Counted from the first letter of the stretch, positions 44,853 to 64,000 are shown. The stretch is 64,000 bases of DNA from Rickettsiales bacterium (GCA_044356525.1 JBIKVZ010000002.1:2612-66611), one strand, 5' to 3'. Numbers and translations: made by a program. The notes: generated by a model not told the origin, from the sequence alone.

Positions 44853-46415
44853 ATGATGGAAGCAGCGATTTTTAATAGCGAATTATTTATGTCGGCATTC
44901 AAATCGGAATTTACCGTACCGCTACTTGTTGCAGCATTTGGACTATTGCTGTGTGTGGCTTCGTATTATCCCGGCTATGCCATGAACGACAGTATCAGCA
45001 TTTATAAAAGCATTAAATCTGATACTATTGGAGATTGGTTTCCGCCTTGTTTTTCGTTGGTGTGGAGAGAGCTGGATGCCATATGGCCTGGGCAGCAAAC
45101 GCTCTTTTTATTACAAAATATTTTGTACTGGAGCGCTGTTTTTTTAATCGGCTCTACGGTTGCGTATGGACGGGGTGTTAAGGCTGCTATCGTTGCTATA
45201 GGATTTTGCTTTTTTCCATATTTTTTGTTTGGGCTTGGCGTGGTCCAGCGTGAGCCGTTGCTGGCGGCCGCAGTGCTACTGGCTTTTAGCATGCTCTGGT
45301 TTCGTCGTCGTACGGGGCACCTGCACCCGCTTTGGGTTAAAATTGGCGCCAGCGGACTATGTCTTTTTGCTGTTTCCATTCGGCATGAGGCAATCATTAT
45401 ACTGCCATTTTTTGCAGCCTATTTGGTGGTTGAAAAAGGTGATATCCGCCAACTAAAAACATGGAAAAAAATAGGCGCTTTATTTGTGGTGCTGGTAATT
45501 ATGAGCACGGCTGTTTCACAATTTTGTAAGTACTGCACGGACGCAAATAAATCCTATGCTTCCAGTACACTTATTTATTTTGATCTTAAGGGCATCAGCT
45601 ATTTTATGCCCAAAGGGGAGTATGTCAGCTTTGGCGAGTTTGATTCTGAGCAGGCGAAGGAAGTGTACGATGGCCGTGAATGGTCACGCCATTACCTGAC
45701 ACACGATCAAAGAGATATGGATTATTTTAAAATTATCCATCAAAGGCACTGGAGTGATTTACAGGGCGTGAGAAAACTCTGGCTAAGCCTTATTGCTCAG
45801 TATCCGCTCAGTTATCTAAAGCATCGGTTCAATCACTTTATTTATCAGTTGGAAATTAAAGATACGCCGCCGAATGTATTAAAGATTGCAGTTAAATATG
45901 CTGATGATCCCAATGTCATTAATCAAAACTATGATGATTTAGCTAACGCAAAAATAACGGGTGTCGCGGATGTGTTCTATCGCTATGGCATTGCAAAATC
46001 GTGGGGATTTTTTGCGTTTTCGTTTGTTCTACTCTTTTTTTATCGTTGCTTTAAGTCAACTGAGGATAAGGAGTTTTTTCTTGTATTGCTGCTCGGCGGC
46101 ATTACTTACAGCCTAATTTTCTTGATAATTGGCGTTGCGCATCAGGCGCGCTATTTTTTCTGGCACAATGTGGCAACAGTGGTGGCATTAGGTTTGCTAT
46201 GTGCACAGATGGTGCCGCCAGCTACCAGTAAGGCGATGGCAAAGGCTACAAAACCAAAAAAAGCGTATAAGAAGAAGTCGCAAACGAAGAAAAAGAAAGA
46301 ATGGTGCCTCTGGCCGGGGTCGAACCGGCACGTCCCGCAAAGGACAACAGATTTTGAGTCTTATCATCACAACAGCCTACAAATTCCTACAACAAGAAAT
46401 TGTAGGGTTTTCTAG
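44853..46415 (+). CDS. large polytopic membrane protein (GT-C-like?), with 3' end running through the tRNA-Leu att fragment
   Basis: 520 aa with many TM helices and a Lys-rich tail. The last ~38 codons are antisense to the tRNA-Leu fragment (46302-46361) and to island DNA, so the present C-terminus is shaped by the integration junction. Confidence 0.6.
   Translation: MMEAAIFNSELFMSAFKSEFTVPLLVAAFGLLLCVASYYPGYAMNDSISIYKSIKSDTIGDWFPPCFSLVWRELDAIWPGQQTLFLLQNILYWSAVFLIGSTVAYGRGVKAAIVAIGFCFFPYFLFGLGVVQREPLLAAAVLLAFSMLWFRRRTGHLHPLWVKIGASGLCLFAVSIRHEAIIILPFFAAYLVVEKGDIRQLKTWKKIGALFVVLVIMSTAVSQFCKYCTDANKSYASSTLIYFDLKGISYFMPKGEYVSFGEFDSEQAKEVYDGREWSRHYLTHDQRDMDYFKIIHQRHWSDLQGVRKLWLSLIAQYPLSYLKHRFNHFIYQLEIKDTPPNVLKIAVKYADDPNVINQNYDDLANAKITGVADVFYRYGIAKSWGFFAFSFVLLFFYRCFKSTEDKEFFLVLLLGGITYSLIFLIIGVAHQARYFFWHNVATVVALGLLCAQMVPPATSKAMAKATKPKKAYKKKSQTKKKKEWCLWPGSNRHVPQRTTDFESYHHNSLQIPTTRNCRVF
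46302..46361 (-). other. 3' fragment of tRNA-Leu(CAA) (anticodon loop to CCA): island att-site repeat
   Basis: The reverse complement reads AGA-CTCAAAA-TCT, a long variable arm, GCCGG-TTCGACC-CCGGC, then CAGAGGC-A-CCA. The T-arm is perfect and the anticodon is CAA. No matching 5' acceptor/D-arm follows. Confidence 0.85.
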
Positions 46416-46648: not shown

Positions 46649-46882
46649 CTAGGGCTTTAGATAGCGAGCGATGGTGGCACTATCGGGATACTCGCCATAT
46701 CCGCTTTCCAATATTTCGCCCCGCGCGGAAACATCCATCACTCTCCCAGCCTCTGCCTGCTTTGAAAGCAGTACAGATTTCTGATGGTTTGCGCGCACCA
46801 GATGCCAACAGCTTCGGCCGGTGATGTCGCATCCCCTTACCACAGTAATTTCTTCTGGCCTGATTTTTGTTCTTGTCATCAT
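46649..46882 (-). CDS. hypothetical protein (77 aa)
   Basis: The ORF overlaps the stop of the upstream M20 gene by 4 nt (translational coupling). No family recognised. Confidence 0.5.
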   Translation of the reverse strand: MMTRTKIRPEEITVVRGCDITGRSCWHLVRANHQKSVLLSKQAEAGRVMDVSARGEILESGYGEYPDSATIARYLKP

Positions 46883-48294
46883 TGAATACCCGGCGTGCGC
46901 TCTACAAGCGGTGCTGAACCAAATGGAATGATACGGTTGTCAGGTTTGGAAGCGACCAGCTTGTCGCGATCCAAACAAGTTTCGGCGATGGCCGCCAGCA
47001 ACATTTGTGGCCCACGCTTCAGCTGCTCAGGAGTAATAAATTCGTTTTGCGCGTGTGCGCCTTGTGAGAGCAGGCCTGTGCCAAAGACCAGCGTGGTGGC
47101 GCTGGGGAAATGAAACGCAAATCCACCTGCGTCAGAAGCAAAACCTACCGTTTGAGTTTTTGGTTCTTTTTCATTCACCGCAGCATAAATCTGGGCAAAC
47201 GCTTTCACCGCCTCAGGATTTTGAACTGGCAACTGGCGAGAATTTGAAACTAGTGTACGTGAAACTTTTGCTTCCGGCAGGGTGGCATCAGGCGGTGTTT
47301 TTTCTTCCGCCTCTGCCCGGATGAGGCGGTCAAGTTCTGCCACTCTTCTTTGAATGGGCTCCATCAGTTTCTCGAGCGGCATCGCCGGTGTAGTACGCAA
47401 ATGTAGGCTTATTGTGGCACCCGCAGGAATGGTGTTGCCGCTATTGCCAATAGTGACCGTGCCAGCATTTACGATGGGGTAGGGCGGATCAAAATGTGGG
47501 TCGTGATATTGCGAATCTTTCATCAGACGGCTCTGGTAGTCAATAATAAACCCCAGTAAATCGTGCGCGTAATGCAGGGCATTCACCAATTTTTCTGGCT
47601 CAGAAGAATGCCCCCCAATGCCCGTGATTTGAATATTAAGACCAGCCGCACCCTTGTGACTATATACCACCGACTCACCGGTGGGCTCATTCACAATCAC
47701 CATGCGGGGGTTACAGCCTTGCTTAGTGAGTTTTTCACAGACACGGTCTACCCCTTGGCAACCCACTTCCTCACCATATGAGAGTGCAAAATAGACCGGC
47801 TCCTTCAATGTATCGTGCCTCCCTTCATAAAGGCGCGCCACTGCGAGCATATTCAAAATCGCTTGTTTCATATCCACTGCACCCCGACCTACCAAACCAT
47901 ATTCAGCTGAGGTGAGCTTGAAAGGGTCCTGTCCGTTCCAATCGCCCGGAGCGGGCACGACATCAGTGTGTGAGGAAAGAACTACACCAGCAGGTGCAGA
48001 AGATTCTTTAGTGGCATTGCCACCGATTTTCCCAGTGAGCGTGGCTTGCATGATGCCTGACCCTTTGGGGTACTCGTCCTCTTCGGTGTAAAGCGTTTCT
48101 ACTCCTAGGCGATCAAGCTCTCGCTTGAGCGTTTTGACGAATGGCACGTTACTTCTCGCAAGCTCCGGCTTATGCGAGCTTGAGGTATCGTACCCCACCA
48201 GAATTTCTAGTACCTTAATTGCATCCTCCATGGATGCAAAGGTGCCATCTGCATTCAGCGAAAGATTATCAATGTAGGTGGAAAGCATATCCAT
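46879..48294 (-). CDS. M20 family metallopeptidase (ArgE/DapE/acetylornithine deacetylase-like)
   Basis: Metal-binding motifs are LSSHTDVVP, GRGAVDMK and SYGEEVG. The likely start is MDMLSTY at 48294, although the ORF is open to 48375. Confidence 0.8.
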   Translation of the reverse strand: MDMLSTYIDNLSLNADGTFASMEDAIKVLEILVGYDTSSSHKPELARSNVPFVKTLKRELDRLGVETLYTEEDEYPKGSGIMQATLTGKIGGNATKESSAPAGVVLSSHTDVVPAPGDWNGQDPFKLTSAEYGLVGRGAVDMKQAILNMLAVARLYEGRHDTLKEPVYFALSYGEEVGCQGVDRVCEKLTKQGCNPRMVIVNEPTGESVVYSHKGAAGLNIQITGIGGHSSEPEKLVNALHYAHDLLGFIIDYQSRLMKDSQYHDPHFDPPYPIVNAGTVTIGNSGNTIPAGATISLHLRTTPAMPLEKLMEPIQRRVAELDRLIRAEAEEKTPPDATLPEAKVSRTLVSNSRQLPVQNPEAVKAFAQIYAAVNEKEPKTQTVGFASDAGGFAFHFPSATTLVFGTGLLSQGAHAQNEFITPEQLKRGPQMLLAAIAETCLDRDKLVASKPDNRIIPFGSAPLVERTPGIQ

Positions 48295-48374
48295 AGAATC
48301 CCGAGGCCATAAAAGAGCAGTGTAGCAACCTTCAATTAACGAAAGATTAATAGGAAATGCGGGCGTAAACACCA

Positions 48375-48455
48375 AAACAGGTATTGAGTCTATAAATCAG
48401 ATGGTTAATGCCATAATCCGCTTTTTTCACTGTACATCCCTGGATTTGAAGATGT
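48375..48455 (+). repeat. relic copy of the 3' end of the 109-aa gene plus downstream spacer (repeat D; partner E at 60489-60573)
   Basis: 29 of 32 nt are identical over GTATTGAGTCTATAAATCAGATGGTTAATGCC versus 60495-60526. The last codons KQVLSL-stop are preserved, and the alignment continues to ...TTCACTGT...TTTGAA. Confidence 0.8.
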
Positions 48456-48599: not shown

Positions 48600-48674
48600 G
48601 CCTCGATAGCTCAGTTGGTAGAGCAAGGGATTGAAAATCCCTGTGTCGCTGTTCGATTCCGGCTCGAGTCACCA
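48600..48674 (+). tRNA. tRNA-Phe(GAA)-like gene, 75 nt, with aberrant T-stem (possible pseudo-tRNA)
   Basis: GCCTCGA-TA-GCTC-AGTTGGTA-GAGC-A-AGGGA-TTGAAAA-TCCCT is a canonical 5' two-thirds. However, the 5' T-stem strand (CGCTG or GCTG) does not pair with CCGGC, and acceptor pair 2:71 is C:T. Confidence 0.7.
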
Positions 48675-49572: not shown

Positions 49573-49726
49573 TACTTTAATTATAAACATGGTTGTTTTG
49601 TAGGTTATACGCCTTAAATCTATGGCGCCTGCTTTCCCTGCCACAGCTTTTCTAAACGAATATCGCGGCCACAGTCGCTTCAGTTTCCACCTTCACATTC
49701 TCAGTAATTCGCTCTAGCCTGTGGCC

Positions 49727-51004
49727 ATGCTCACAGACTCAATCACCGACTTACCCCTCCGCTGGCTGTATGTTGATTTTAACAGCTACTTTGCCAGCGT
49801 GGAGCAGCAGTTAAACTCCAAATTAAGGGGCAAGCCCGTTGCCGTGGTGCCAGTGGAGACGGATGCCACCAGCGCCATTGCCGCAAGCTATGAGGCCAAG
49901 GCATTCGGGATTAAAACTGGCACCCCCATCTATGAAGCCAAGCGTATGTGCCCAGGACTTATTTGTGTGCTGGCGAAGCATGAGAAGTATGTTGAGTTTC
50001 ATAACCGCATCATTGAAGAGGTGGGGCGGCATATTCCTGTCTCGATTGTAGCTTCGATTGACGAAGTCGCATGCCATCTGATGGACAACGAGACGTCACT
50101 TAAAAAGGTCACCGAGATTGCCGCTTCTATCAAAAAAGGCTTGGCAAAGAATATCGGTGAATATGTGAAATGCTCTATCGGGGTGGCGCCGAATCGCTAC
50201 CTTGCAAAAATTGCTACCGATATGAAAAAGCCGGATGGCTTCACCATCCTGACACCCCAGGATCTGCCCGCTCGCCTGTTTGAGTTAGAGCTTAGGGACC
50301 TGTCAGGTATTGGGCGCAACATGGAGATACGACTTCGCCTTGCTGGCATTGGCACCATCAAGGACCTCTGGGCACTCGATAAAAAGCAGATTCGCAAAGT
50401 ATGGGGCAGTATCTGGGGTGAGCGCATGTGGTATTTCCTGCGTGGGCATGAGCTGCCCGAAGAAGAAACCACTCGCAGCACCATCGGCCATAGCCACGTG
50501 ATGGCCCCTGAGCTGCGCGACCCCGAACAAGCAAAATATGTGGCACGCAGGCTCGTGCTTAAAGCTGCAAGCCGCCTCAGGCGGTTGGGATACTACGCCA
50601 GCGCCTTGTCCTTCTCTACGCGACTGCAAGATGGCCCACGGCTTGAAACGAGTGAACAGTTCTATCGCGCACAGGATAATAAGACAATTCTGGAGGCCTT
50701 TGATAAGGCCTGGACGAACGTGATGCAGGAAGCGAGGAACGCGAAGCTAAAGAAAGTATCCGTAACACTGCATCACCTGACCGCCGCAACAGACATACAG
50801 CCAGAGTTGTTTGAAAGCCTTTCTGATATTGATATGAAGCAGCGCGGGAAAAGTGAAAGGCTCTCCCATGCCATGGACAGACTGAATCATAAATATGGCC
50901 GCGATACCGTCACCGTCGGCATGCTGCCCACGCAAGGTCGTAGCTTTTCAGGCACTAAAATTGCCTTCACCCGCATCCCAGATGCAGAAGAGTTTTTGGA
51001 ATAG
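49727..51004 (+). CDS. Y-family DNA polymerase (DinB/UmuC/ImpB-like)
   Basis: WLYVDFNSYFASVEQ (catalytic DxxxxF[F/Y]), SIDEVA and GVAPNRYLAKIATDMKKPDG motifs. I prefer the ATG at 49727 over the GTG at 49721. Confidence 0.88.
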   Translation: MLTDSITDLPLRWLYVDFNSYFASVEQQLNSKLRGKPVAVVPVETDATSAIAASYEAKAFGIKTGTPIYEAKRMCPGLICVLAKHEKYVEFHNRIIEEVGRHIPVSIVASIDEVACHLMDNETSLKKVTEIAASIKKGLAKNIGEYVKCSIGVAPNRYLAKIATDMKKPDGFTILTPQDLPARLFELELRDLSGIGRNMEIRLRLAGIGTIKDLWALDKKQIRKVWGSIWGERMWYFLRGHELPEEETTRSTIGHSHVMAPELRDPEQAKYVARRLVLKAASRLRRLGYYASALSFSTRLQDGPRLETSEQFYRAQDNKTILEAFDKAWTNVMQEARNAKLKKVSVTLHHLTAATDIQPELFESLSDIDMKQRGKSERLSHAMDRLNHKYGRDTVTVGMLPTQGRSFSGTKIAFTRIPDAEEFLE

Positions 51005-51570: not shown

Positions 51571-53403
51571 ATGCTACATATTAAAACACACCAAACCCAT
51601 TCCGACATTTGTAAAGCCGCCGCACTACAAATCGCTGCAGCGATAAAGGCAAAACCAAATCTGGTACTCGGTCTTGCGACCGGCAATACGATGGAACCGC
51701 TTTATAACGAACTGGTGCGGATGCACGCCGAAAGGGAAGTGGCTTTCTCGCAAGTCCAGTTTTTCAATCTCGACGAATATAAGGACCTGAGCACCGACGA
51801 CCTGCGTTCGTTTAACCATTACCTAAAAACCTTGTTTCTGGATAAAATCGGGGTGCGGGCGGAACAGATCCATCTAGTGCAGGGAACAGATTTCGACCCT
51901 AAGGCCTATGAAGCGACGATTCGTGAGGCAGGTGGTATCGATATTCAGCTTGTGGGTGTTGGCGGTACCGGCCATATCGGTTTCAACGAAAAAGGCTCGA
52001 CTCTTGATTCCTTGACGCGCGAGATTGAACTTGACGATCGCACCCGCGAAGACAATGCCGGTTCCTGCGGTGGTAAGAAGAATGTGCCGACTCACGCCTA
52101 CACGCAAGGCATCGGCACCATCATGCGCGCCAATCAAATCATCATGCTCGGCAATGGTGGGCATAAGGCGCAAGTGGTGCACGATATGTTGATCAATGGC
52201 GACAATATCGAACAACTGCCTGCACGCGCGTTGATGCGCCACCAGGACACGACCATTTATCTGGACGAGCCTGCGACGGAATTGTTGACGAAAGAACAGC
52301 TAATGCAGTTTGGCAACATGACTGATACTCAGGCACGCAACTTCCGCTGCAAGTTCGATCCTATCGTGATCGAGCTGGATGAGGGAAAGAGACTGACTCT
52401 GCCTTATAACGCCGATATTTTTATTCCCGGCGCCATGGAAGTGGACAAAAAATTTGATGTAGGCAATGCCATGCATTTAACGGCGCTGAAGACGATGCTG
52501 AAAAACGTCAAATCCACCTACATGGGCGCGCATCAGGATGATACCGAAATTGAAGTGCCGCATGAGATTGAAAGAAACCTCGCTGAGCAGAAAAAGCATC
52601 CGCCGGAGCCGAGCAGTTTCCTGTCTATCATCGCGACCGACGGTGCTGCCTACACCACCGCCCTGAAGCGCGAAGGAAAATTTGCCAACATCACGCCCGA
52701 AGGGCTGATTGAAATGCGAAAGCGCGAACAACGTGTGGCCGCAGAAGAAGGTAAGTTCGCGGTGATCCAGCTGCAATATCCGTCGGCTTCGGTCAAAGGG
52801 CAGGTCAGTAAGGACAAATCGAAAGAGATTGTCAATCATATGAAATCGCTCTATGATGCGTTGCCTAACCACCAGACGGCTTACAGCCACGCGCCGGTCG
52901 ATACGCACGAAACCCATGTGGCGGTACTGACGCTGGCGGCTCAGGCGTTACGCTTGGCCGAGAAAAAGCCGGAAAAGCTTTTTGGTATGGAAGGTTGGGG
53001 TGAGCTTGGAATTGGCGACACTACCTTCTCCGTGGACAATCCTGAATTGGTGGGCCAATTGCTGCGCTGCTACGAATCGCAGATTGCCATGCAAAAACGT
53101 CCGTATGATGAGATTGCCGTGGCGCGTATTCGTGGTAACGGGTTCATGGGTGATCACCACGCCGAAGCGAAAAAAGGGGGGATGGTGATTGGTATCGTCC
53201 TTTCTCGGGCGATTTCCGTAGAAGATCCGGTGTCGCTGAAAGAAATCGTCGGCGAGGCGATGCAGAATTTGAAAGCAAGGTCACTGGGCATGCTTTCGAA
53301 CTTTGCTGCACCTGGAAGTATCGAGGAAGCCTCCAATGGCAAGTGGGTTGGTTCAACAGGGATTGGGGCTGGGGCTATTAGCAAAGTTTCAACCCAGAGG
53401 TAG
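51571..53403 (+). CDS. NagB-like glucosamine-6-phosphate deaminase domain fused to an LmbE/PIG-L-like deacetylase domain
   Basis: 610 aa. The N-terminal ~250 aa have NagB/6-PGL motifs (GLATGNTMEPLY, FNLDEY, GVGGTGHIGFNE). The C-terminal half has PIG-L-type motifs (GAHQDDTEI, DTHETHVAV, CYESQI). Confidence 0.75.
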   Translation: MLHIKTHQTHSDICKAAALQIAAAIKAKPNLVLGLATGNTMEPLYNELVRMHAEREVAFSQVQFFNLDEYKDLSTDDLRSFNHYLKTLFLDKIGVRAEQIHLVQGTDFDPKAYEATIREAGGIDIQLVGVGGTGHIGFNEKGSTLDSLTREIELDDRTREDNAGSCGGKKNVPTHAYTQGIGTIMRANQIIMLGNGGHKAQVVHDMLINGDNIEQLPARALMRHQDTTIYLDEPATELLTKEQLMQFGNMTDTQARNFRCKFDPIVIELDEGKRLTLPYNADIFIPGAMEVDKKFDVGNAMHLTALKTMLKNVKSTYMGAHQDDTEIEVPHEIERNLAEQKKHPPEPSSFLSIIATDGAAYTTALKREGKFANITPEGLIEMRKREQRVAAEEGKFAVIQLQYPSASVKGQVSKDKSKEIVNHMKSLYDALPNHQTAYSHAPVDTHETHVAVLTLAAQALRLAEKKPEKLFGMEGWGELGIGDTTFSVDNPELVGQLLRCYESQIAMQKRPYDEIAVARIRGNGFMGDHHAEAKKGGMVIGIVLSRAISVEDPVSLKEIVGEAMQNLKARSLGMLSNFAAPGSIEEASNGKWVGSTGIGAGAISKVSTQR

Positions 53404-54212: not shown

Positions 54213-54482
54213 TCTGTCTGAGACAACACCAGCGCTTTAGATAAAACGCCCTCTCCAAGGGTTGTGGCTGCCCTTCTCCGTGCGCCCTAAGCCGCACATA
54301 ATTTGTGGTTAAAGAAGGCCAATAGCACCTTGGATAAGGGGGCACTTTTTGGGGATTCCCGGAAGAGATAGTATCCTAAGCCATCTCTTTTCGTCTATTG
54401 CCAACTGGTGGCACCTTGGGGGTACTTACTAAATATGTTTGGCGATCTTGTTTCTGATTTCTATCTATGTATTCTGAATTTT

Positions 54483-55187
54483 ATGAAAATTATCACTTGG
54501 AATTGTAATGGTGCATTTAGAAAAAAGTATCACCTAATTGAAAAGTTAGGTGCTGATATTCTTGTGGTTCAAGAATGTGAGGACCCTTCAAGAGTTGAGG
54601 GCGACTATAAGGACTGGGCTCAAAACTACCTTTGGATTGGTGCAAATAAAAATAAGGGGCTTGGAGTATTCGCAAAAAATCACATTAATCTGAAGAGATT
54701 GGACTTGAATGATGATGGTTTGCAATTATTTCTACCATGCAGAATAAATGGATCCTTTAACTTGATTGCGGTATGGACCAAGCAGGCAAATTCACCGAAT
54801 TTTCGTTACATAGGCCAACTTTGGAAATATTTGCAGTTACATAAAGATAGAATCGCAGCAGATAAGGTAATTATTTGCGGAGATTTTAACAGCAATGTCC
54901 AATGGGATGAATGGGATAGATGGTGGAATCACAGTGACGTAGTTCGAGAATTACAAGATATTAATATATACAGCCTTTATCACGAGCTGACTGGTGAGAA
55001 ACAAGGCCTAGAAAGCATGCCAACTCTTTTCATGCATCGCAAATTGGAAAGGGCGTATCATATAGATTATGCCTTTGCTTCAAAAAGATTATTTGATCTT
55101 GAGATAAATACAATTGAAATTGGAAAGCCGGAAATATGGCTGGAATACAGCGATCATATGCCCGTTGTATTCACGGTTAGTGAATAA
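54483..55187 (+). CDS. endonuclease/exonuclease/phosphatase (EEP, ExoIII-like) family protein
   Basis: 234 aa from the ATG at 54483. Motifs are MKIITWNCNG, VVQE, CGDFN and SDHMPV. Confidence 0.82.
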   Translation: MKIITWNCNGAFRKKYHLIEKLGADILVVQECEDPSRVEGDYKDWAQNYLWIGANKNKGLGVFAKNHINLKRLDLNDDGLQLFLPCRINGSFNLIAVWTKQANSPNFRYIGQLWKYLQLHKDRIAADKVIICGDFNSNVQWDEWDRWWNHSDVVRELQDINIYSLYHELTGEKQGLESMPTLFMHRKLERAYHIDYAFASKRLFDLEINTIEIGKPEIWLEYSDHMPVVFTVSE

Positions 55188-55236
55188 CTAAACCTGATAT
55201 GGTATTAATTTAAGCAAATAAACATAGAGGATTTAG

Positions 55237-55587
55237 ATGTCATCTATTTCAGTTTTAATGCAAAAAGTAATACATTTTCGTGACGAAAGAGACTGGGAAC
55301 AATTCCATAATCCAAAAGACGTGGCTTTATCTCTAGTTCTCGAGGCCGCAGAAGTGATGGAACACTTTCAGTGGAAGAGCGCAGATGAAATAAAAAACCA
55401 TGTCAAAAATCACAAGGAAGAGATCGGCGAAGAGCTGGCGGATGTATTTTATTGGATTCTATTAATGGCCCATGACCTAAAAATAGACCTAGGGAGCGCA
55501 GTAGAAAAAAAGCTAGCTAAAAATGCAGAGAAGTACCCTATTGATAAGGCAAAAGGCTCACATAAAAAATACACAAAAATTAAATAG
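55237..55587 (+). CDS. MazG-like nucleotide pyrophosphohydrolase
   Basis: 116 aa, all-alpha. The EExxE-type metal motifs are LVLEAAEVMEHFQW and IGEELADVFYWILLMA. Confidence 0.78.
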   Translation: MSSISVLMQKVIHFRDERDWEQFHNPKDVALSLVLEAAEVMEHFQWKSADEIKNHVKNHKEEIGEELADVFYWILLMAHDLKIDLGSAVEKKLAKNAEKYPIDKAKGSHKKYTKIK

Positions 55588-55600
55588 AGAGCACCAAACA

Positions 55601-57457
55601 ATGATTGTCTATCAGAGTGAGAAGAGACAGTTCATTGAGGATGTCGTATCTAATTCAATTGAAAAAAAGATTCTTAGTCAGTTTCAGCTAAAGCTAAACA
55701 GAACCACCACTGCGAAGGAGATTAATTCATGGAAAAATTCCATGATGTATATGCAGAATATTCTAATGGATACCGATATTCCAGAAACTTGCGGCGTCGC
55801 TATTGAATATAAAATTCCTCTCACATCTAAGCGTGTAGACTTTATTCTATCTGGAACAAGTGAGGAAAAAGAAGGCTTAGCCATTATTATTGAGCTAAAG
55901 CAGTGGAGTGATGCAAAAAAGACTGATCGTGATGGAATCGTTATCAGTTTTATTGGGGGGCGAGAACGCGAGCTTAGCCACCCTTCTTATCAAGCCTGGT
56001 CTTACGCGGCGATTATCCGAGATTTTAATGAAGCAGTGTATAATGCAAACATACCGATTCATCCCTGCGCGTACCTTCATAACTTTGAGACGAGTAAGGA
56101 TATTTTTAACGACTCCTTCTATAAGGAATATACTGAAAAAGCTCCGGTGTTTTTAAGGGAAGATGCTCTTAAGCTACGTGCCTTTATCAAGCGCCACGTC
56201 AAACATGGTGATAGCGGCGATACCATCTACAAGATAGATTCCGGAAGAATTAGGCCCTCAAAATCATTGGCGGATAAAGTTTCTTCGCTACTTAAGGGCA
56301 ATCAAGAATTTGTCATGATCGATGACCAAAAGGTCGTTTTTGAGGCCGTGCTTTCTTATACGCGGCTACCCAATAAGAAGAAAACAGTCATCATCGTGGA
56401 TGGTGGACCAGGTACTGGGAAGACCGTGGTTGCAATGAATTTACTATCGAAACTACTTAATGAAGGAAAAAACGCACAATATGTGACCAAAAACTCAGCA
56501 CCACGAAGTGTGTATGAGGCAAAGCTGGTTGCAGATTTCAAAAAAAGTGCCATATCCAACCTTTTCAGTGGCTCAGGGGCTTATACCGCAACAGAGCCTA
56601 ATACTTTTGATATTTTAATTGTAGATGAGGCACACAGGCTAAATGAAAAATCTGGCATGTTTCAAAACTTAGGTGAGAACCAGGTAAAAGAGCTTATTAA
56701 TTCATCATCTCATACTGTATTTTTTATTGATGAGAACCAAAAAGTTTCCCTCAAGGACATTGGCACAAAAGAAGAAATTGAGAAATGGGCGGGGATTCTA
56801 AATGCAGATGTTGTACACCTTGAATTAGCCTCGCAATTCAGATGCAATGGATCTGACGGATATATTGCATGGTTAGATAACACACTGCAAATTAAGGAAA
56901 CAGCCAATGAAACGCTAGAGGGTATTGATTATGATTTTCGCATAGTTTCTAGCCCCTCGGAACTTCGTGATTTGATAGTTGAGAAAAATAAAATCAATAA
57001 TCGCGCACGCCTTGTGGCGGGGTATTGTTGGGATTGGAAAAGCAAAAAAGATCACAATGCTTATGACATCGTTTTTCATGAATTTAATTTTCAAATGAGA
57101 TGGAATCTTACAGACGATGGAATGTTATGGATTATGAAGAAAGAATCCGTCGACCAGGTTGGCTGTATACATACCTGTCAAGGGCTCGAGCTTGATTATG
57201 TGGGCGTGATAATTGGCGATGATATGACCTACACTAATGGAGCTGTTCAGACCAATGTACTTAAACGATCAACAAATGACTCCACTATAAAAGGTTACAA
57301 AAAGCTTCTCAGGGAAAAGCCTATAGATGGAGCTCGCCAATTAGATGTGCTCATTAAGAATACATATCGCACCTTAATGACTCGTGGCATGAAGGGATGC
57401 TACGTTTATTGTGTAGACAAAGGATTAGAGGACTATCTTAGAAAGAAGTTGGAATAG
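55601..57457 (+). CDS. PD-(D/E)xK nuclease-like N-domain fused to a DUF2075-type (Schlafen-helicase-like) P-loop ATPase
   Basis: 618 aa from the ATG at 55601. The N-terminus has E69...D80 (RVDF)...E98-L-K100 (IIIELK). Walker A is GGPGTGKT (268-275) and Walker B is IVDEAHR (340-346). The C-terminal ...TRGMKGCYVYC is typical of DUF2075 proteins. Confidence 0.75.
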   Translation: MIVYQSEKRQFIEDVVSNSIEKKILSQFQLKLNRTTTAKEINSWKNSMMYMQNILMDTDIPETCGVAIEYKIPLTSKRVDFILSGTSEEKEGLAIIIELKQWSDAKKTDRDGIVISFIGGRERELSHPSYQAWSYAAIIRDFNEAVYNANIPIHPCAYLHNFETSKDIFNDSFYKEYTEKAPVFLREDALKLRAFIKRHVKHGDSGDTIYKIDSGRIRPSKSLADKVSSLLKGNQEFVMIDDQKVVFEAVLSYTRLPNKKKTVIIVDGGPGTGKTVVAMNLLSKLLNEGKNAQYVTKNSAPRSVYEAKLVADFKKSAISNLFSGSGAYTATEPNTFDILIVDEAHRLNEKSGMFQNLGENQVKELINSSSHTVFFIDENQKVSLKDIGTKEEIEKWAGILNADVVHLELASQFRCNGSDGYIAWLDNTLQIKETANETLEGIDYDFRIVSSPSELRDLIVEKNKINNRARLVAGYCWDWKSKKDHNAYDIVFHEFNFQMRWNLTDDGMLWIMKKESVDQVGCIHTCQGLELDYVGVIIGDDMTYTNGAVQTNVLKRSTNDSTIKGYKKLLREKPIDGARQLDVLIKNTYRTLMTRGMKGCYVYCVDKGLEDYLRKKLE

Positions 57458-57540
57458 AGTACCCATCCAAAGCAGAGACTCTGGGGCTCTTATGGGAGGG
57501 GGTGCTTTTCTAGATATGGGATGGAGATATCCTAACAACC

Positions 57541-57632
57541 ACCCCACCCCGACTTTTTAAGCTCAGCGTTAATACAACCCACCCTCTCACCAGAAATTTT
57601 TAATTTTTTGTACGCAACCGCTGATGCCGCAG
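57541..57632 (+). repeat. ~92-nt imperfect direct repeat B (partner A at 51122-51214)
   Basis: See repeat A. It lies between the convergent stops of the DUF2075 gene and the PLD nuclease gene. Confidence 0.75.
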
Positions 57633-57634
57633 AA

Positions 57635-58156
57635 CTAATACTTCGGCTTATACTCCTCAGCCTCATCCCAGAGCTTATTCCAATTATCTAGATACTTCTT
57701 GGCGAGTTCTTGGGTGTCTTTGATAACCAAAACATTCTCTGCGTTCTTCTTTTCAGCAGCCTTTGAATAGTTAAAGCTACCCTGCTGCACATCCTTGCCG
57801 TCAATGACCATGTATTTGTTGTGCATGATGGCGTACTTATCATTGATGCGGGTGGGCACCCCCATGTTCGCCAAGAAGGTTGCAGATGTGTATTTTGCTG
57901 TTCTTTGGCTTTTATCCAGAACGACCTTAACATCCACCCCTTTTTTGTGGGCCTCCACTAAGGCCTTTGCTATGGGCTCAGAGGTGAACGAATAGGCTGC
58001 GACCCTGATGCTTACCTGTGCCGCAGAAATGGTCTGTACTATAAGCTCTGTGCCACCTCCATTGGGGGAGAATGCAACCTTATAGCCAACATCCGCTCCG
58101 AAGGCTGCAGGGGCACTAAAAGCAATCAACAGAATTAGTATTCGAATGTATTTCAT
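57635..58156 (-). CDS. secreted phospholipase-D-family endonuclease (Nuc-like)
   Basis: 173 aa with a signal peptide (MKYIRILILLIAFSAPAAFG) and a single HKD motif (HNKYMVIDGKDVQQGSFNYS). The size is as in plasmid Nuc nucleases. Confidence 0.85.
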   Translation of the reverse strand: MKYIRILILLIAFSAPAAFGADVGYKVAFSPNGGGTELIVQTISAAQVSIRVAAYSFTSEPIAKALVEAHKKGVDVKVVLDKSQRTAKYTSATFLANMGVPTRINDKYAIMHNKYMVIDGKDVQQGSFNYSKAAEKKNAENVLVIKDTQELAKKYLDNWNKLWDEAEEYKPKY

Positions 58157-58215
58157 GCGCGTTTCAGTATGGCGTATCTGGCTATAATTATCACCAGATA
58201 CGCCTGTTTACGTAA

Positions 58216-59550
58216 TCAAGTCAACTTTCTTGCAAAGCAAAGACCGTCTTGCGTACTGATAGTATTTTTTAATTTTAGGTTGATGACATACTCATAGACT
58301 TGTTCATAAGGCTCTGAACTTTTACTAATACGCTCTTTCTTGATCCAGGCATAATCTTCAGCATTGCCTTTTATTAGACCGTTTTTTAACAGATAATCAG
58401 AATAATCAAGGCCGTGAAGAGTGGGTTGTATTTTCCAATTCTTTATATCTTGGATTCTATCAATGAACTCAGAATCAGTGCCGAATAGAGAACTGGGTGA
58501 GTAAAGGAAAGGAGTTGCAAAGAGACCTTCGTCTATCAGCTGCCTTATCTGCTTATCGTATGAGACAATATTGGAGGCCGGGATCCTGAATTTACTAAGT
58601 TGAAGATTTACATTTGGATGATTTCTGTGGTTATAAAAACAAACATTCCCACACTTAAATTTTAAAGCATCCTCTAGCTTTATTCTTTCGCAATTCAGGC
58701 TATCAAAGCTAAAGCCAAAACTGTAGATATCTTTAGCTTTATAGAGTGCATCTTGAATCTCTTTTAAATTATGATCATCTTCATGAGTAATCCGGATACT
58801 TTCTGCTGATTCCACCACTTGTCTTCCGAAGATTCTAAAATTGTTTTCTCCACGCACAATGGGCCTGAATTTAACCTCCCCGTATACATGAAGTATTTTT
58901 ACATAATCTCTATAATCTACCCCTTTAAAAAGCTCAGAATGTTTATTGAAGTTGCTCTCAAGATAAATCTCTAAGGAGGTATCATAGTTGAAGGTAATAA
59001 CTGTTAGCTGATCCTTTATTAAATCATCTCCAGAATTTGCACCTTTCTTTATTTGCTGTATTAAACGCCCGTACCAGCCACTTTCATTAGATGGCGATAT
59101 CTTTGGATTATAATCTACATTATTTTCCTGAAAAGATTTTTTACATGCCAGATGCCTAAGAATTTCCAATGCTATATACAGCTTACCTATTTTTTGCTGG
59201 CCTGGATTTTCTCGAAGAAAAGCGTCAATACTCCGATGTTGGTCAATAGTAGCTTCTAAGCCCTTAAGTAGATTGGTGTGAAAATTAGCCTGCTTATAGG
59301 CTTGTATTGCCGCATTTTCCTCATTGTCATGAGAGCTTCCCCATAAGTAACTGATAAGGGCCTGGTATGGATGTAATCCAAAATCATTTTCTTTTCTTTT
59401 TTCGGCCCATGGGGCGCCTGTTATTATTTCATCAAGTTTTAATGTTCTTAGCCCATTTATGATGTTTTTTACTAAAGCGTCGCCAAGCGGAAAGTCGTAG
59501 TCCAGACTTGCTCCTGCGCCTAGTATTATGACTGTTGGCTCTGTAAACAT
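58216..59550 (-). CDS. SIR2-like (SIR2_2-type) domain protein with an uncharacterised C-terminal region
   Basis: 444 aa. The ordered motifs GAGAS (11-15), FNYD (187-190), HVYG (221-224) and FGFSFDS (278-284) parallel the ThsA/DSR SIR2 motifs (GAGxS, TTNYD, HG, GFSFxD). Confidence 0.7.
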   Translation of the reverse strand: MFTEPTVIILGAGASLDYDFPLGDALVKNIINGLRTLKLDEIITGAPWAEKRKENDFGLHPYQALISYLWGSSHDNEENAAIQAYKQANFHTNLLKGLEATIDQHRSIDAFLRENPGQQKIGKLYIALEILRHLACKKSFQENNVDYNPKISPSNESGWYGRLIQQIKKGANSGDDLIKDQLTVITFNYDTSLEIYLESNFNKHSELFKGVDYRDYVKILHVYGEVKFRPIVRGENNFRIFGRQVVESAESIRITHEDDHNLKEIQDALYKAKDIYSFGFSFDSLNCERIKLEDALKFKCGNVCFYNHRNHPNVNLQLSKFRIPASNIVSYDKQIRQLIDEGLFATPFLYSPSSLFGTDSEFIDRIQDIKNWKIQPTLHGLDYSDYLLKNGLIKGNAEDYAWIKKERISKSSEPYEQVYEYVINLKLKNTISTQDGLCFARKLT

Positions 59551-59557
59551 TATCTTC

Positions 59558-60103
59558 TTATTTTTTCCACAAATAGAGAATTAATACGGCAACAGGTATC
59601 AGAAATGCATAAGCAAAAAGCAATTGCTTTAACGGGCTTAGGCCCTCAAATTTTTTGTTAAACATTTGAAGTCTTTTAACAGTTTCCAGGCCTGATAAGT
59701 AATTTTTATATTGGTCAAAAGAGCCCCCATCGATGATCTGGTTGATGCCTATAAATACAGCCAAGCAAAGCATGGGTACATATGCCATTTCACTCCTCAG
59801 TGGGCTGCAGCCGTGGTTGTGATAGCAACCGATGCTTAAGATCCAAATTGTAATTGCAATTACACTGTAAGCACCAAGCAGCCATGGGAGTTTTTTATTT
59901 TCCATCGCCCAGCGCCAGGCATATGTAGTCCATACGGGTGAGGTGACTAAGGCATAATAAAACATCTGCATGATTAGCGGCGTACGACGAGCCAACTCAT
60001 TAGCGAGGTCATACGAGATGGGTAGTGCCGCAACCATCCATATAGCGGATAGTGCTATGGCAATTTTTCTTTTATCAATTTTTTGCTGTTTCTCGCTGCC
60101 CAT
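59558..60103 (-). CDS. polytopic membrane protein (181 aa, ~5 TM)
   Basis: Hydrophobic helices run throughout. The stop is 7 nt upstream of the SIR2-like gene start, so the two are probably co-transcribed. No family recognised. Confidence 0.6.
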   Translation of the reverse strand: MGSEKQQKIDKRKIAIALSAIWMVAALPISYDLANELARRTPLIMQMFYYALVTSPVWTTYAWRWAMENKKLPWLLGAYSVIAITIWILSIGCYHNHGCSPLRSEMAYVPMLCLAVFIGINQIIDGGSFDQYKNYLSGLETVKRLQMFNKKFEGLSPLKQLLFAYAFLIPVAVLILYLWKK

Positions 60104-60580: not shown

Positions 60581-62077
60581 CTACTTTTTCTTCTTCAGCA
60601 GCCGATTCACCTTCGCCGCACTACAGCCTAACTCCTCGGCTATTTCGCGTTGTTTGTACCCATCAGCATGCAGCGCGAATACTTTCTCACTCAGACTATC
60701 TTCCAGGTCCTTTACAGCCCACTCAAAAGCCCCATCCTTCAAAATAGATGTTGCCTCAAAAGGCTTTGCTTTCTCTCCATAAAAACCGCGTGCCTTTTCG
60801 TAATGCACCTCAAAACTTGCGCCTTTCTGTTGGTCGTGGTCGTTTGGATTTTTTAGCGCTATTACGGTGTCGAGTAAGTCCTCGCGCTTTGAAGTGCCCC
60901 TTTGAAGTCCGCCCTTACCTGCATGGTGCACGATCAGCACAGATATTCCTCTTCTGCGCCATGATAAAAGAAGCTCCTGTATGGGCATCCAAGACTCTGC
61001 CTCATTCTCTTTCCCTTTTCGAGCTAGGGCCGAAAGGTTGTCTAATATTATAAGATCAACCCCATTGGTATGTTGTTCGATCGCATCCCTGCCTTCTTCT
61101 GAACACAAATCCGGCATTCCAACCTCCTGCATATCGGGCGTAATCAATTTAAAGTAATCTTGACTCGGCATTTCGTTTAGGCTGTTGCCCGAAAGGTCTT
61201 TCAACCTTTTTTGCATGTCCACAGCCGTCATCTCACCATCTATATATAAAACTCTGCTTGGCTTGGTGGCCTTCCACCTTCCCCCTAGAGTTGCCGCCCC
61301 TTTTGCTACGGCTACAGCTATGGATAAAGCCACATACGTCTTACCAATCCCACGCGGGGCATACAGCATGACGAGCCCCTGCTTAGGTATGATGGGGTCA
61401 ACGATTATTTCTCGCGGCGGGATCTTTAGGCTAAGGAAGCTTTCCAGGGTAAGGCTTTTGAGAAGTGTTTTCTTTGCGGCAGAAGCGGCGTTGGCAAGGT
61501 AGGCCTTCGCGCGCTCCTGGTCCCAGCCTTCTTCCAACGCATCTGCAGCGTCCCACCCTTTCGGCTTATCTTCCGAGACTGGCAGTACTTTGACCGAAGA
61601 AACAATAGGTCGCAGTAGCTCAACCAGCGCATCGGCATATTTTTTACCCGCCTCATCAGCATCAGGCCAGATGACAACATCCTTATTGGCCAGGGGGGTT
61701 AAATCGGTTTTGTGCGCCGCATTACAGCCACCGGAGGTGGTAATGCACGGGAGATGAGAAAACAGTTTCTGAGCTGCATCGGCCGCTTTCTCACCTTCGC
61801 ATACAATAACAGGCTCATTCGCTTGGTTGCTTAGTCTGTCCAGGCCGTAGAGTGGTCGCGGTTCAGGCCAGATCTTTTTCTGCCAGCCGCTACCACCATC
61901 CTGATCACCCCAAAAAGTGTAAGGAACTATATCCTTGCCACCTTCCTTGTCATAACGACAGACCACCCCAAGCAACGCCCCACTTGCATCCCGATACTCA
62001 AATTGGGTTGAGGGATTTCCTGTAGGGGGCAACCCAGCTGACTCTGGCACCGGCTTTATTAACTGTGCTTCAATCAT
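60581..62077 (-). CDS. Toprim-primase / RecA-like (AAA_25-type) helicase with C-terminal HTH
   Basis: 498 aa. Toprim motifs are VIVCEGEKAADAA and VVIWPDADEAGKKYA. Walker A is APRGIGKT and Walker B is LIILDNLSAL. The C-terminal HTH is KQREIAEELGCSAAKVNRLLKK. Confidence 0.8.
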   Translation of the reverse strand: MIEAQLIKPVPESAGLPPTGNPSTQFEYRDASGALLGVVCRYDKEGGKDIVPYTFWGDQDGGSGWQKKIWPEPRPLYGLDRLSNQANEPVIVCEGEKAADAAQKLFSHLPCITTSGGCNAAHKTDLTPLANKDVVIWPDADEAGKKYADALVELLRPIVSSVKVLPVSEDKPKGWDAADALEEGWDQERAKAYLANAASAAKKTLLKSLTLESFLSLKIPPREIIVDPIIPKQGLVMLYAPRGIGKTYVALSIAVAVAKGAATLGGRWKATKPSRVLYIDGEMTAVDMQKRLKDLSGNSLNEMPSQDYFKLITPDMQEVGMPDLCSEEGRDAIEQHTNGVDLIILDNLSALARKGKENEAESWMPIQELLLSWRRRGISVLIVHHAGKGGLQRGTSKREDLLDTVIALKNPNDHDQQKGASFEVHYEKARGFYGEKAKPFEATSILKDGAFEWAVKDLEDSLSEKVFALHADGYKQREIAEELGCSAAKVNRLLKKKK

Positions 62078-62697: not shown

Positions 62698-63246
62698 TTA
62701 CTTTTGGGGTCGCCCAGCCTTCAGAATCTTGTTTTGTTTTTTATGGCAGTGGCTCTTGTACTTTTCTGCTACATTTTTAAATGTGCGTTCAAACGCTTCT
62801 ACGGCATTAGATAAGGCTTCTTCTGAGGAATCAATTTTACCCTCAGTTGTTTTAGATGCTGGATAATGCTGATCCCTCAGCTCATGGAAGAATGTTGGAT
62901 CATCTTTTTTAACGCCCGCTTTTTTGACCATGGCCCTTACGGCTTCCCCTGTTATACCAAGCATGGTGGCGGCGGTCTTCGTATGAGTTTTATCGTCTAT
63001 GAAACCGTCTTTACACAAGAGAGTCCGCATCGCAACAAGTTCTAGTAGAGCAGGTGGGGTTTTGGGCTGACCGCGACCTCTTCTTGGCTCTTCTGCAACC
63101 AGCTTTTCTACACCATCCTCTATATCTTTAATTACGTACTTTGGGCAGGGCATCCCGGCTTCTGAGCTTTTTTTCAAATCGTCTATGGACGCAATCAACT
63201 GCCAATACGTATTACTCATTTCTTGCTCCTTTGATAAATTTATCAT
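62698..63246 (-). CDS. hypothetical island protein
   Basis: 182 aa (or 173 aa from MSNTYWQ at 63219). It overlaps the integrase stop. No family recognised. Confidence 0.5.
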   Translation of the reverse strand: MINLSKEQEMSNTYWQLIASIDDLKKSSEAGMPCPKYVIKDIEDGVEKLVAEEPRRGRGQPKTPPALLELVAMRTLLCKDGFIDDKTHTKTAATMLGITGEAVRAMVKKAGVKKDDPTFFHELRDQHYPASKTTEGKIDSSEEALSNAVEAFERTFKNVAEKYKSHCHKKQNKILKAGRPQK

Positions 63247-64000
63247 TCATTCTCCTTACGACCTCAGATGTGTGTGAGTCGGATAGATGCGCATAGCGCT
63301 TAACCATCTGCAGCGTTTTATGGCCAAGCACCTCCGCAATCTCTGCCAAGCTTGCGCCGCTCATGACTAGATAGGAGGCAGCACAGTGCCGCAAATCATG
63401 GAATCGAAAGTCATTTATGCCCGCTGTATCTAATGCCTTTAGCCAAGCACCCCTGATCGATGCTGGTTTCTTTTTGCTGTGCAGGGAGTGGAATATAAGG
63501 CCAGTCTTAAGGTCGATATTTTTTCTGCGACAAACCATTTCGCTCAAAACTGGGCCTTCAATTGGAACCCTTCTGCGTTCACCATTTTTGGTCTGTTCAA
63601 GAATTACGAAACCTTTGTCGAGGTCTAAGTTTTCCCAGCGAATGCTCAATATTTCTCCGAGGCGCATACCGGTTGATACGGCTAGCATCACTATTGGATA
63701 AAGATTCCTGGTTTTTGATTGCTCACAAGCATCCAAGAGACGGAACAAATCATCATCATTCAGAAACCGCACTCGCCCTCTGGGCTCTTTTGGTCGCCGT
63801 ACCTTATTAACTGGATTACTATCCAGCCACGCCCATTCCTTGACCGCGATAGTAAAGGCATGAGAAAGGGCAGCCATGTAGCGCACAACAGTAGAGGGGC
63901 TTCGCCTAATTCCTGGCCGCCCTTCTTCTGCAAGGAGTCTGTCTCTGACCTCTGCTATAAGGGAAGGGCTGATGTCAGAGAGTAAATAACAGCCGAGTTC
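63212..64000 (-). CDS. int: tyrosine recombinase/integrase (5' end beyond window)
   Basis: Catalytic region motifs are ...TGMRLGEIL..., HDLRHCAASYLVMSG and LGHKTLQMVKRYAHL. The frame stays open upstream of the listed Met to position 64000 (ELGCYLLSDISPSLIAEVRDRLL...). Confidence 0.9.
   Translation of the reverse strand, partial: ELGCYLLSDISPSLIAEVRDRLLAEEGRPGIRRSPSTVVRYMAALSHAFTIAVKEWAWLDSNPVNKVRRPKEPRGRVRFLNDDDLFRLLDACEQSKTRNLYPIVMLAVSTGMRLGEILSIRWENLDLDKGFVILEQTKNGERRRVPIEGPVLSEMVCRRKNIDLKTGLIFHSLHSKKKPASIRGAWLKALDTAGINDFRFHDLRHCAASYLVMSGASLAEIAEVLGHKTLQMVKRYAHLSDSHTSEVVRRMNDKFIKGARNE

Follow-up and report, generated by a model that had tools for sequence, protein, structure and literature searches.

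A MazG-like gene paired with a DUF2075 nuclease-helicase gene on a Rickettsiales tRNA-Leu island looks like an undescribed two-gene relative of the Nhi anti-phage proteins

In a 64,000-nucleotide stretch of DNA from a Rickettsiales bacterium (GCA_044356525.1, JBIKVZ010000002.1:2612-66611; hereafter the window, with positions counted from its first nucleotide) three adjacent genes, g1, g2 and g3 (54483-57457), encode an EEP nuclease, a MazG-like nucleoside triphosphate (NTP) pyrophosphohydrolase and a protein that combines a predicted PD-(D/E)xK nuclease with a DUF2075 helicase. An initial annotation had taken the three genes together as a candidate defence system. Here we find that the conserved unit is the pair of g2 and g3, and that g1 is a separate mobile neighbour and not part of the module. 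To judge from its sequences, the pair seems to be a relative of the Nhi anti-phage proteins that consists of two genes and has not been described before. We favour, with moderate confidence, the reading that g2 and g3 constitute a translationally coupled two-gene defence module, carried on a tRNA-Leu integrative island and directed against phages or other invading DNA.

Results

g2 and g3 form the conserved unit

Genomes were scanned with an alignment of g3, which gave at least 596 species hits, and the best 80 loci (53-61% identity) were searched with the window proteins. A g2 relative lies directly adjacent to the g3 relative and in the same direction in 66 of these 80 species loci (about 83%), and one further locus holds a fragment. 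The pair-bearing loci span Bacteroidota, Proteobacteria, Verrucomicrobiota, Nitrospira, Chloroflexota, lineages of the candidate phyla radiation and others. The MazG-like gene is upstream of the g3 relative in 60 loci, at gaps of -4 to +56 nucleotides (nt) that include 21 four-nucleotide ATGA overlaps, and downstream in 6. The same arrangement is found for the four closest g3 relatives (85, 75, 71 and 69% identity), all of which have the MazG-like gene 2-15 nt upstream and none of which has an EEP gene. Starting from g2 instead, we looked at four close homologues: after two of them comes a DUF2075 gene, and after a third a cut gene coding for over 541 amino acids.

No relative of g1 was detected in any of the 80 species loci bearing a g3 relative. 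Conversely, neither g2 nor g3 relatives were detected in 80 metagenome loci that were obtained with an alignment of g1 and examined for them. All three genes together turned up in just two loci, both copies of this element with one-to-one matches for each protein. Around the pair itself no third gene is conserved, the commonest neighbour families occurring in at most 8 of the 80 loci. Thus, the three-gene unit of the initial annotation does not survive a comparison of the three families across genomes: outside this element g1 co-occurs with its two partners in 0 of 80, 0 of 80 and 0 of 4 loci.

The g3 family comprises 822 clusters at 50% identity (E ≤ 1e-30), keeps its full-length architecture down to about 32% identity and reaches archaeal plasmids. 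A scan of IMG/VR with the g3 alignment and a degenerate Walker-A pattern returned at least three real relatives among the matches listed, which is weak ground for calling the family rare in viruses. The 22-kb record of Microcystis phage Mwe-JY31 (PP438423.1; locus L178:3657-5863) holds a MazG-like protein 45% identical to g2 and a DUF2075 protein 56% identical to g3, and all features in the 9.7 kb examined around this pair are annotated 'hypothetical protein'. At the locus of the 75%-identical relative the MazG-DUF2075 pair (L175:4636-6869, plus strand) stands head to head with a second, divergent DUF2075 gene of 640 amino acids (L175:2581-4503, minus strand). On plasmid pKK1 of Bacillus thuringiensis (L167, 1-5857) a DUF2075 protein with 25% identity to g3 is encoded co-directionally with a DEAD-box helicase, an NTP pyrophosphohydrolase and an HNH endonuclease. 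NTP pyrophosphatases and DUF2075 helicases may have become coupled here by convergence.

Gene layout and the separate nuclease gene g1

The genes g1 (54483-55187, 234 amino acids), g2 (55237-55587, 116 amino acids) and g3 (55601-57457, 618 amino acids) all lie on the plus strand and are separated by 49 and 13 nt. Their guanine-cytosine (GC) contents are 0.37, 0.38 and 0.40, whereas the island backbone and the remaining window have about 0.50. The open reading frames (ORFs) and their composition are in full agreement with the initial description of three same-strand, AT-rich genes, and its domain assignments were confirmed as well, namely ExoIII/EEP catalytic motifs in g1, a minimal MazG-type NTP pyrophosphohydrolase in g2, and a restriction-endonuclease-like core joined to a DUF2075 P-loop module in g3. 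The start codon of g1 at 54483 (ATG) agrees with the N-terminus of its homologues, MKI(I/V)TWNCNG, while other gene callers place the start at 54435 or 54408. A ribosome-binding site, AGAGGA, precedes g2 and no terminator-like hairpin was found between g1, g2 and g3. Co-transcription of the three genes is therefore plausible, and in the source organism g1 is probably transcribed together with g2 and g3.

The g1 protein matches PF03372 over the whole profile length (E = 6e-10), and all of 21 homologues keep the EEP catalytic residues N7/N9, E31, D134/N136, D195 and D224-H225 without change. This is further supported by an AlphaFold2 (AF2) model with a predicted local distance difference test score (pLDDT) of 86, for which Foldseek finds NExo, ExoIII, APE1 and LINE-1 endonuclease as the nearest structures, with template modelling (TM) scores of 0.65-0.74. 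With the XthA equivalog models TIGR00633 and TIGR00195, only the N-terminal half of g1 aligns and the scores stay below the cutoffs (37.6 bits versus 99 and 32.1 versus 182.6). Thus, g1 is a member of the EEP superfamily with an ExoIII/APE1-like fold and not an XthA orthologue. Its family counts about 3000 matches with 55-75% identity. In 9 of about 36 informative loci g1 relatives adjoin genes for Mrr (5 loci) or DUF4357 (4 loci), and elsewhere housekeeping genes; the family may itself represent a mobile nuclease associated with restriction. The Mrr-type neighbours, with Mrr_N and Mrr_cat domains, were seen at L094:2263-3183, L085, L096 and L143, and the DUF4357 neighbours at L089:198-1094, L091 and L093.

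Taken by itself, the layout would be compatible with a single defence system of three components, with the EEP nuclease as an integral effector. All three genes point the same way and are closely spaced with no terminator between them, they have a low GC content in common, g1 has the fold of DNA-acting enzymes of the ExoIII/APE1 type, and its family frequents defence neighbourhoods. We nevertheless regard such a system as very improbable, because g1 is missing from the 80 g3 loci and from those of the four closest relatives, the 80 loci of its own family lack g2 and g3, and the trio was seen only in two copies of one element. g1 would have landed upstream of the pair in this one element, where it is perhaps co-expressed with a module that would have no need of it.

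g2 resembles the dCTP pyrophosphatase DCTPP1

The g2 protein is an all-alpha member of the MazG-like family PF12643 (E = 5e-18, 65.7 bits versus a cutoff of 27) with both metal-binding motifs, ExxE (E36, E39) and ExxD (E66, D69), whose conservation across 68 partner sequences is 99% or higher. Its best sequence match in the PDB is mammalian DCTPP1/RS21-C6 (E = 1e-18), to which the whole catalytic core including both motifs can be aligned, and one annotation source labels g2 'dCTP diphosphatase'. DCTPP1 hydrolyses 5-methyl-dCTP (PMC4491611). In contrast to DCTPP1, g2 is a minimal form of 116 amino acids that lies in an operon with a nuclease-helicase, and its substrate preference is a prediction. 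At L169:4001-6297 (also L170 and L171) a MazG-like protein that shares 70% identity with g2 is followed by a 263-amino-acid unannotated protein and a C5 cytosine DNA methylase. This locus, present on at least 24 contigs, lies within a mobile element with a PIF1 helicase and ParE/Phd genes and carries no DUF2075 gene.

A small upstream gene that overlaps a large effector gene by ATGA resembles toxin-antitoxin operons, and AbiEi and other toxin-antitoxin genes are found among the neighbours of the pair. In E. coli, mazG adjoins mazEF. The two genes might accordingly constitute a toxin-antitoxin or abortive infection system in which a toxic g3 is held in check by g2, either by binding or by destruction of a nucleotide signal. 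However, the catalytic residues of g2 are conserved as in a housekeeping enzyme, 13 of the 80 g3 relatives have no adjacent g2, and a g2 homologue occurs beside a methylase in a locus without g3. We therefore give this explanation little credence.

It is also conceivable that g2 itself is the effector and drains the pool of dCTP or of deoxynucleoside triphosphates (dNTPs), with g3 acting as sensor, activator or second effector. The DCTPP1-like sequence and the intact catalytic residues of g2 are consistent with such nucleotide-depletion immunity, and the tight translational coupling fits a complex of regulator and effector. Moreover, dNTP depletion is an established mode of defence, as for the defensive dCTP deaminase and dGTPase. 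Against this, a constitutive dCTPase of 116 amino acids would be toxic unless regulated and g2 has no regulatory domain. The nuclease residues of g3 are invariant (see below), which indicates that g3 is not merely a sensor, and the methyl-directed restriction genes around the pair are better explained by a specificity for modified bases. Depletion as the primary mode of action is thus unlikely.

g3 joins a predicted nuclease to a Schlafen-type helicase

Residues 261-606 of g3 match PF09848, the DUF2075/SLFN-g3_helicase family, from the first to the last profile position (1-354 of 354) with E = 1.9e-103 and 347 bits versus a cutoff of 24. This part of the protein is thus a superfamily 1B (SF1B) helicase domain of the DUF2075/Schlafen (SLFN) type. 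Its motifs GGPGTGK (268-274) and DEAHR (342-346) are invariant in 21 g3 relatives with 58-85% identity, as are residues E69, D80, E98 and K100 of the preceding domain. This N-terminal region (residues ~1-250, nt 55601-56350) is predicted to adopt a PD-(D/E)xK fold, based on the invariant motif, on the predicted strands and on a profile alignment with the Nhi-like protein described below. E69, D80 and E98-x-K100 fall on the consecutive predicted strands 65-70, 79-86 and 92-100, the usual layout of such nucleases. The AF2 model of g3 (pLDDT 78) retrieves RecD, RecD2, SLFN11, Dna2 and Dda with Foldseek; this whole-protein search is dominated by the helicase and gave no confirmation of the nuclease fold, and a comparison of whole g3 with PDB chains returned only P-loop noise. 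Profile comparisons of the N-terminus with NERD and Mrr proteins from neighbouring loci were not significant, and in that with Mrr only the ExK strand ('ELKQW / QAKRW') lined up.

In a variant from Paceibacterota (715 amino acids; L173:4351-6498 and L174:1612-3759) a GIY-YIG domain takes the place of the PD-(D/E)xK-like N-terminus and is followed by DUF2075 and Peptidase_S24 domains. A MazG-like gene 67% identical to g2 lies directly upstream. This exchange, with the MazG-like gene retained, argues that the N-terminus of g3 is likewise a nuclease module. The additional C-terminal Peptidase_S24 domain of about 180 amino acids is found in 41 of the 80 g3 relatives (e.g. L022:7850-8394, L007 and L063) and is missing from the window g3. 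A conserved Ala-Gly site, a serine within a GESM motif and a lysine that is likewise conserved make it a complete self-cleavage module of the LexA/UmuD type. The sequence of this domain suggests that these relatives undergo self-cleavage triggered by RecA on single-stranded DNA (ssDNA), leading to activation or release.

Comparison with known systems

Based on PADLOC models, neither g1 nor g2 has a match, while g3 matches PDC-S41 (3.8e-20, residues 5-315) as well as AbiO and Nhi (about 1e-15, on the P-loop region only). PDC-S41 is the best defence-model match and spans the N-terminal domain together with the start of the helicase. The match is nevertheless partial (profile positions 7-291 of 657) and does not extend over most of the model, and PDC-S41 is a single-gene candidate that is absent from the literature searched, which mostly excluded subscription journals. 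A pairing of MazG with DUF2075 is not described in this literature.

Nhi of S. epidermidis (SERP2475) degrades phage replication intermediates (Bari et al. 2022, 10.1101/776245). g3 has in common with Nhi and AbiO the architecture of a nuclease followed by an SF1B helicase/DUF2075 domain, its nuclease part being predicted from motif and strands. However, the match is limited to the P-loop half of g3 (residues 234-416), the nuclease domains do not align, and no MazG partner is described for Nhi. With the PADLOC Nhi model the alignment (1.3e-14) pairs g3 residues 235-416 with profile positions 179-331 of 470, short of full-length membership.

g3 can also be compared with the Nhi-like protein of Bacillus cereus FSL H8-0482 (Millman et al. 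2022, 10.1101/2022.05.11.491447), a single-gene system with experimentally demonstrated anti-phage activity, which phages escape through loss of their own DNA methylase. Like g3, it joins a predicted PD-(D/E)xK nuclease at the N-terminus to a DUF2075 helicase within one polypeptide. We compared g3 with the first 399 amino acids of Nhi-like. While BLASTP detects 23% identity in the P-loop region (E = 2e-4), hhalign aligns g3 residues 33-349 with Nhi-like residues 34-318 over 276 columns, with a probability of 91% and E = 1e-6. This alignment covers the nuclease motifs, i.e. the E-Y-x-I, D and E-x-K strands. In contrast to the single-gene Nhi-like system, the g3 family has an adjacent and often overlapping MazG-like gene in most loci, and about half of its members add a C-terminal S24 domain.

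Eukaryotic group 3 Schlafen proteins (SLFN11, SLFN13 and others) contain a helicase of the same family, PF09848, likewise combine nuclease with helicase and have antiviral or replication-stress roles, and SLFN11 is among the top structural matches to g3. Their N-terminal nuclease has a different, tRNA-cleaving fold, however, and there is no coupling to MazG. Finally, type IV enzymes (McrBC, Mrr, PLD-helicase-DUF3427, DUF3427-DUF3883) resemble the system through recurrent operon or neighbour partners (MrcB_N, mREase_IV, HNH_2, DUF3883). They differ in that g3 has no recognisable modified-base reader, and a dependence on modification is an assumption drawn from the neighbours. The view that the combination belongs to no named system thus holds insofar as no PADLOC model is matched in full, and has to be qualified by the Nhi/Nhi-like architecture of g3. 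A main risk is the possibility that the pair is already listed in newer defence catalogues.

Methyl-directed restriction genes are frequent near the pair

To characterize the neighbourhood we compared the 124 ORFs that immediately flank the pair in 73 loci with the PADLOC models. Matches were obtained to mREase_IV (5), HNH (5), SoFic (4), PDC-S04, S05, S23 and AbiEi. Genes with Mrr_cat, MrcB_N, AAA_15/21 and HD domains lie near the closest g3 relatives, and within 6 kb of the pair PLD-helicase-DUF3427 type IV enzymes and HNH_2 proteins occur in 8 loci each. Reader genes of the MrcB_N/DUF3578 type are located in the same operon at L003, at L172 and on a Priestia plasmid, a Streptomyces g3 relative is preceded by a DUF3883 gene, and a close g2 homologue lies two genes from a C5 DNA methylase. 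An association of DUF2075 NTPases with modification-dependent endonucleases has been noted earlier (Lutz et al. 2019). Within g1-g3 themselves we found no modified-base reader (SRA, PUA, DUF3427 or MrcB_N); the only ones seen belong to neighbouring genes at other loci, and g1-g3 therefore do not qualify as a type IV modification-dependent restriction system with a reader domain of its own.

This neighbourhood also bears on whether the genes could be a mobile cassette for DNA damage and repair, with g3 in Dna2/RecD-like repair or fork processing, g2 in pool clean-up and g1 acting like an apurinic/apyrimidinic (AP) endonuclease. RecD and Dna2 are among the best Foldseek matches of g3, the LexA/UmuD-like S24 domain in 41 of the 80 relatives implies RecA-stimulated self-cleavage, the g3 family is highly conserved in sequence, DCTPP1 is a pool-cleaning enzyme, and a UmuC-like polymerase gene is located on the same island. 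However, it is restriction, Abi and SoFic genes, and not genes for repair, that are abundant among the nearest neighbours, and the genes are patchily distributed and have been transferred horizontally, with occurrences on plasmids, on an integrative island and in one phage record. Moreover, remote relatives of the same architecture are experimentally anti-phage, and sensing of RecA-ssDNA could plausibly also report that a phage is replicating. On balance a repair cassette appears unlikely.

The integrative island and its other cargo

The pair resides on an integrative element of about 18.3 kb that is inserted at tRNA-Leu. The left attachment (att) repeat (46300-46361, plus strand, direct repeat) reproduces 62 bp from the 3' part of tRNA-Leu(CAA) without a mismatch. 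A search of plasmids and of complete E. coli genomes yielded no near-identical DNA. Based on locus L001, which extends the window, the intact tRNA-Leu(CAA) lies about 590 bp past the window end, at window-equivalent positions 64587-64675, beside the integrase, and the other copy of the 62-bp direct repeat bounding the island falls within L001:10309-10399. The tyrosine integrase gene (63212-64000, minus strand; PF00589, E = 2.6e-33) runs past the window end and encodes 367 amino acids on L001. A primase/AAA_25 gene of the island (60581-62077, minus strand) matches AAA_25 (E = 1.6e-30) and Toprim. The initial annotation was right that the genes are island cargo, whereas the element ends it had called relic are not relics and comprise an exact repeat, a tRNA-Leu and an integrase.

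The cargo proper is the AT-rich block at 54400-60103 (GC 0.37-0.46), in which g1-g3 are followed by three genes on the minus strand. These encode a PLD/NucT-like nuclease of 173 amino acids with an apparent signal peptide (57635-58156; PLDc_2, 1e-27; DrmC-like PADLOC matches), a 444-amino-acid, weakly SIR2-like protein (58216-59550; SIR2_2, 2.6e-4) and a multi-pass membrane protein of 181 amino acids (59558-60103). The latter two genes are 7 nt apart and may be another defence pair. Elsewhere on the island an M20 peptidase gene (46879-48375, minus strand) and the UmuC-like Y-family polymerase gene (49721-51004, plus strand) flank a tRNA-Phe(GAA) (48600-48674). No umuD-like partner was seen beside the polymerase gene, and the tRNA-Phe was ruled out as integration site because the att repeat matches tRNA-Leu. 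In a 610-amino-acid protein encoded at 51571-53403, residues ~1-250 form a NagB-like glucosamine-6-phosphate deaminase domain, while the remaining ~360 residues have no Pfam match.

Discussion

The link of g2 and g3 to defence derives from the Nhi/Nhi-like architecture of g3, from its apparent remote homology to Nhi-like, and from the restriction, Abi and SoFic genes around the pair. The initial annotation as a candidate defence system can thus be retained as a plausible defence-type role, but not in its three-gene form. In such a module g3 would be the effector, an ATP-driven SF1B helicase with an N-terminal nuclease that unwinds and cuts foreign DNA in the manner of Nhi and Nhi-like. g2 would be an active pyrophosphohydrolase of cytosine-derived dNTPs with a preference for 5-methyl- or 5-hydroxymethyl-dCTP, and the two proteins may contact each other. 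The activity of g2 could have two effects. Phages that build modified DNA would be starved of precursors, and modified nucleotides released when g3 degrades such DNA would be kept out of the host chromosome, which might otherwise become a target itself. The link to modified cytosine is suggested by the DCTPP1 likeness of g2, the MrcB_N and type IV neighbours, the C5 methylase near a g2 homologue, the escape of phages from Nhi-like by methylase loss and the association described by Lutz et al. (2019).

Several points weigh against this reading. The role in defence is deduced from a relative with 23% sequence identity and from gene neighbourhoods, and dCTP or 5-modified dCTP as substrate of g2 is a guess from its likeness to DCTPP1 at about 40% identity. 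The N-terminal 250 amino acids of g3 gave no match to Pfam or to PDB sequences. Of the 13 species loci that lack an adjacent MazG-like gene, 10 are uncut, so that g3 can exist alone, while the other three end less than 350 bp upstream of the g3 relative, at a contig end. The NTP pyrophosphohydrolase near the DUF2075 gene of B. thuringiensis is not a recognisable g2 homologue. Furthermore, the g3 family is 55-60% identical across phyla, which is unusually conserved for an immune gene, and the S24 domain in about half of the relatives could just as well indicate a role in DNA damage or repair.

A more far-reaching version of the defence module is that the pair represents an unnamed, widespread immune module of two genes, in which a LexA-like, RecA-responsive gate operates in many lineages and policing of modified dCTP is obligatory. 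We put this forward tentatively and consider it doubtful in its full extent. If true, it would be a prokaryotic counterpart linking the eukaryotic SLFN helicases and DCTPP1.

The correction of the unit of study matters by itself, as work on the three-gene fragment would wrongly credit the EEP gene with a role. Nuclease-helicases of the DUF2075/Schlafen type count as established anti-phage effectors and have so far been treated as single-gene systems. The g3 branch is large and unusually conserved, occurs in bacteria and archaea and is almost always accompanied by a dCTP-pyrophosphatase-like partner that is catalytically intact by its motifs, often also by readers of methyl-cytosine or by a switch that resembles LexA in its self-cleavage. 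If this pairing is functional, it would represent a new principle, in which the clean-up of the nucleotide pool is coupled to DNA-targeting immunity.

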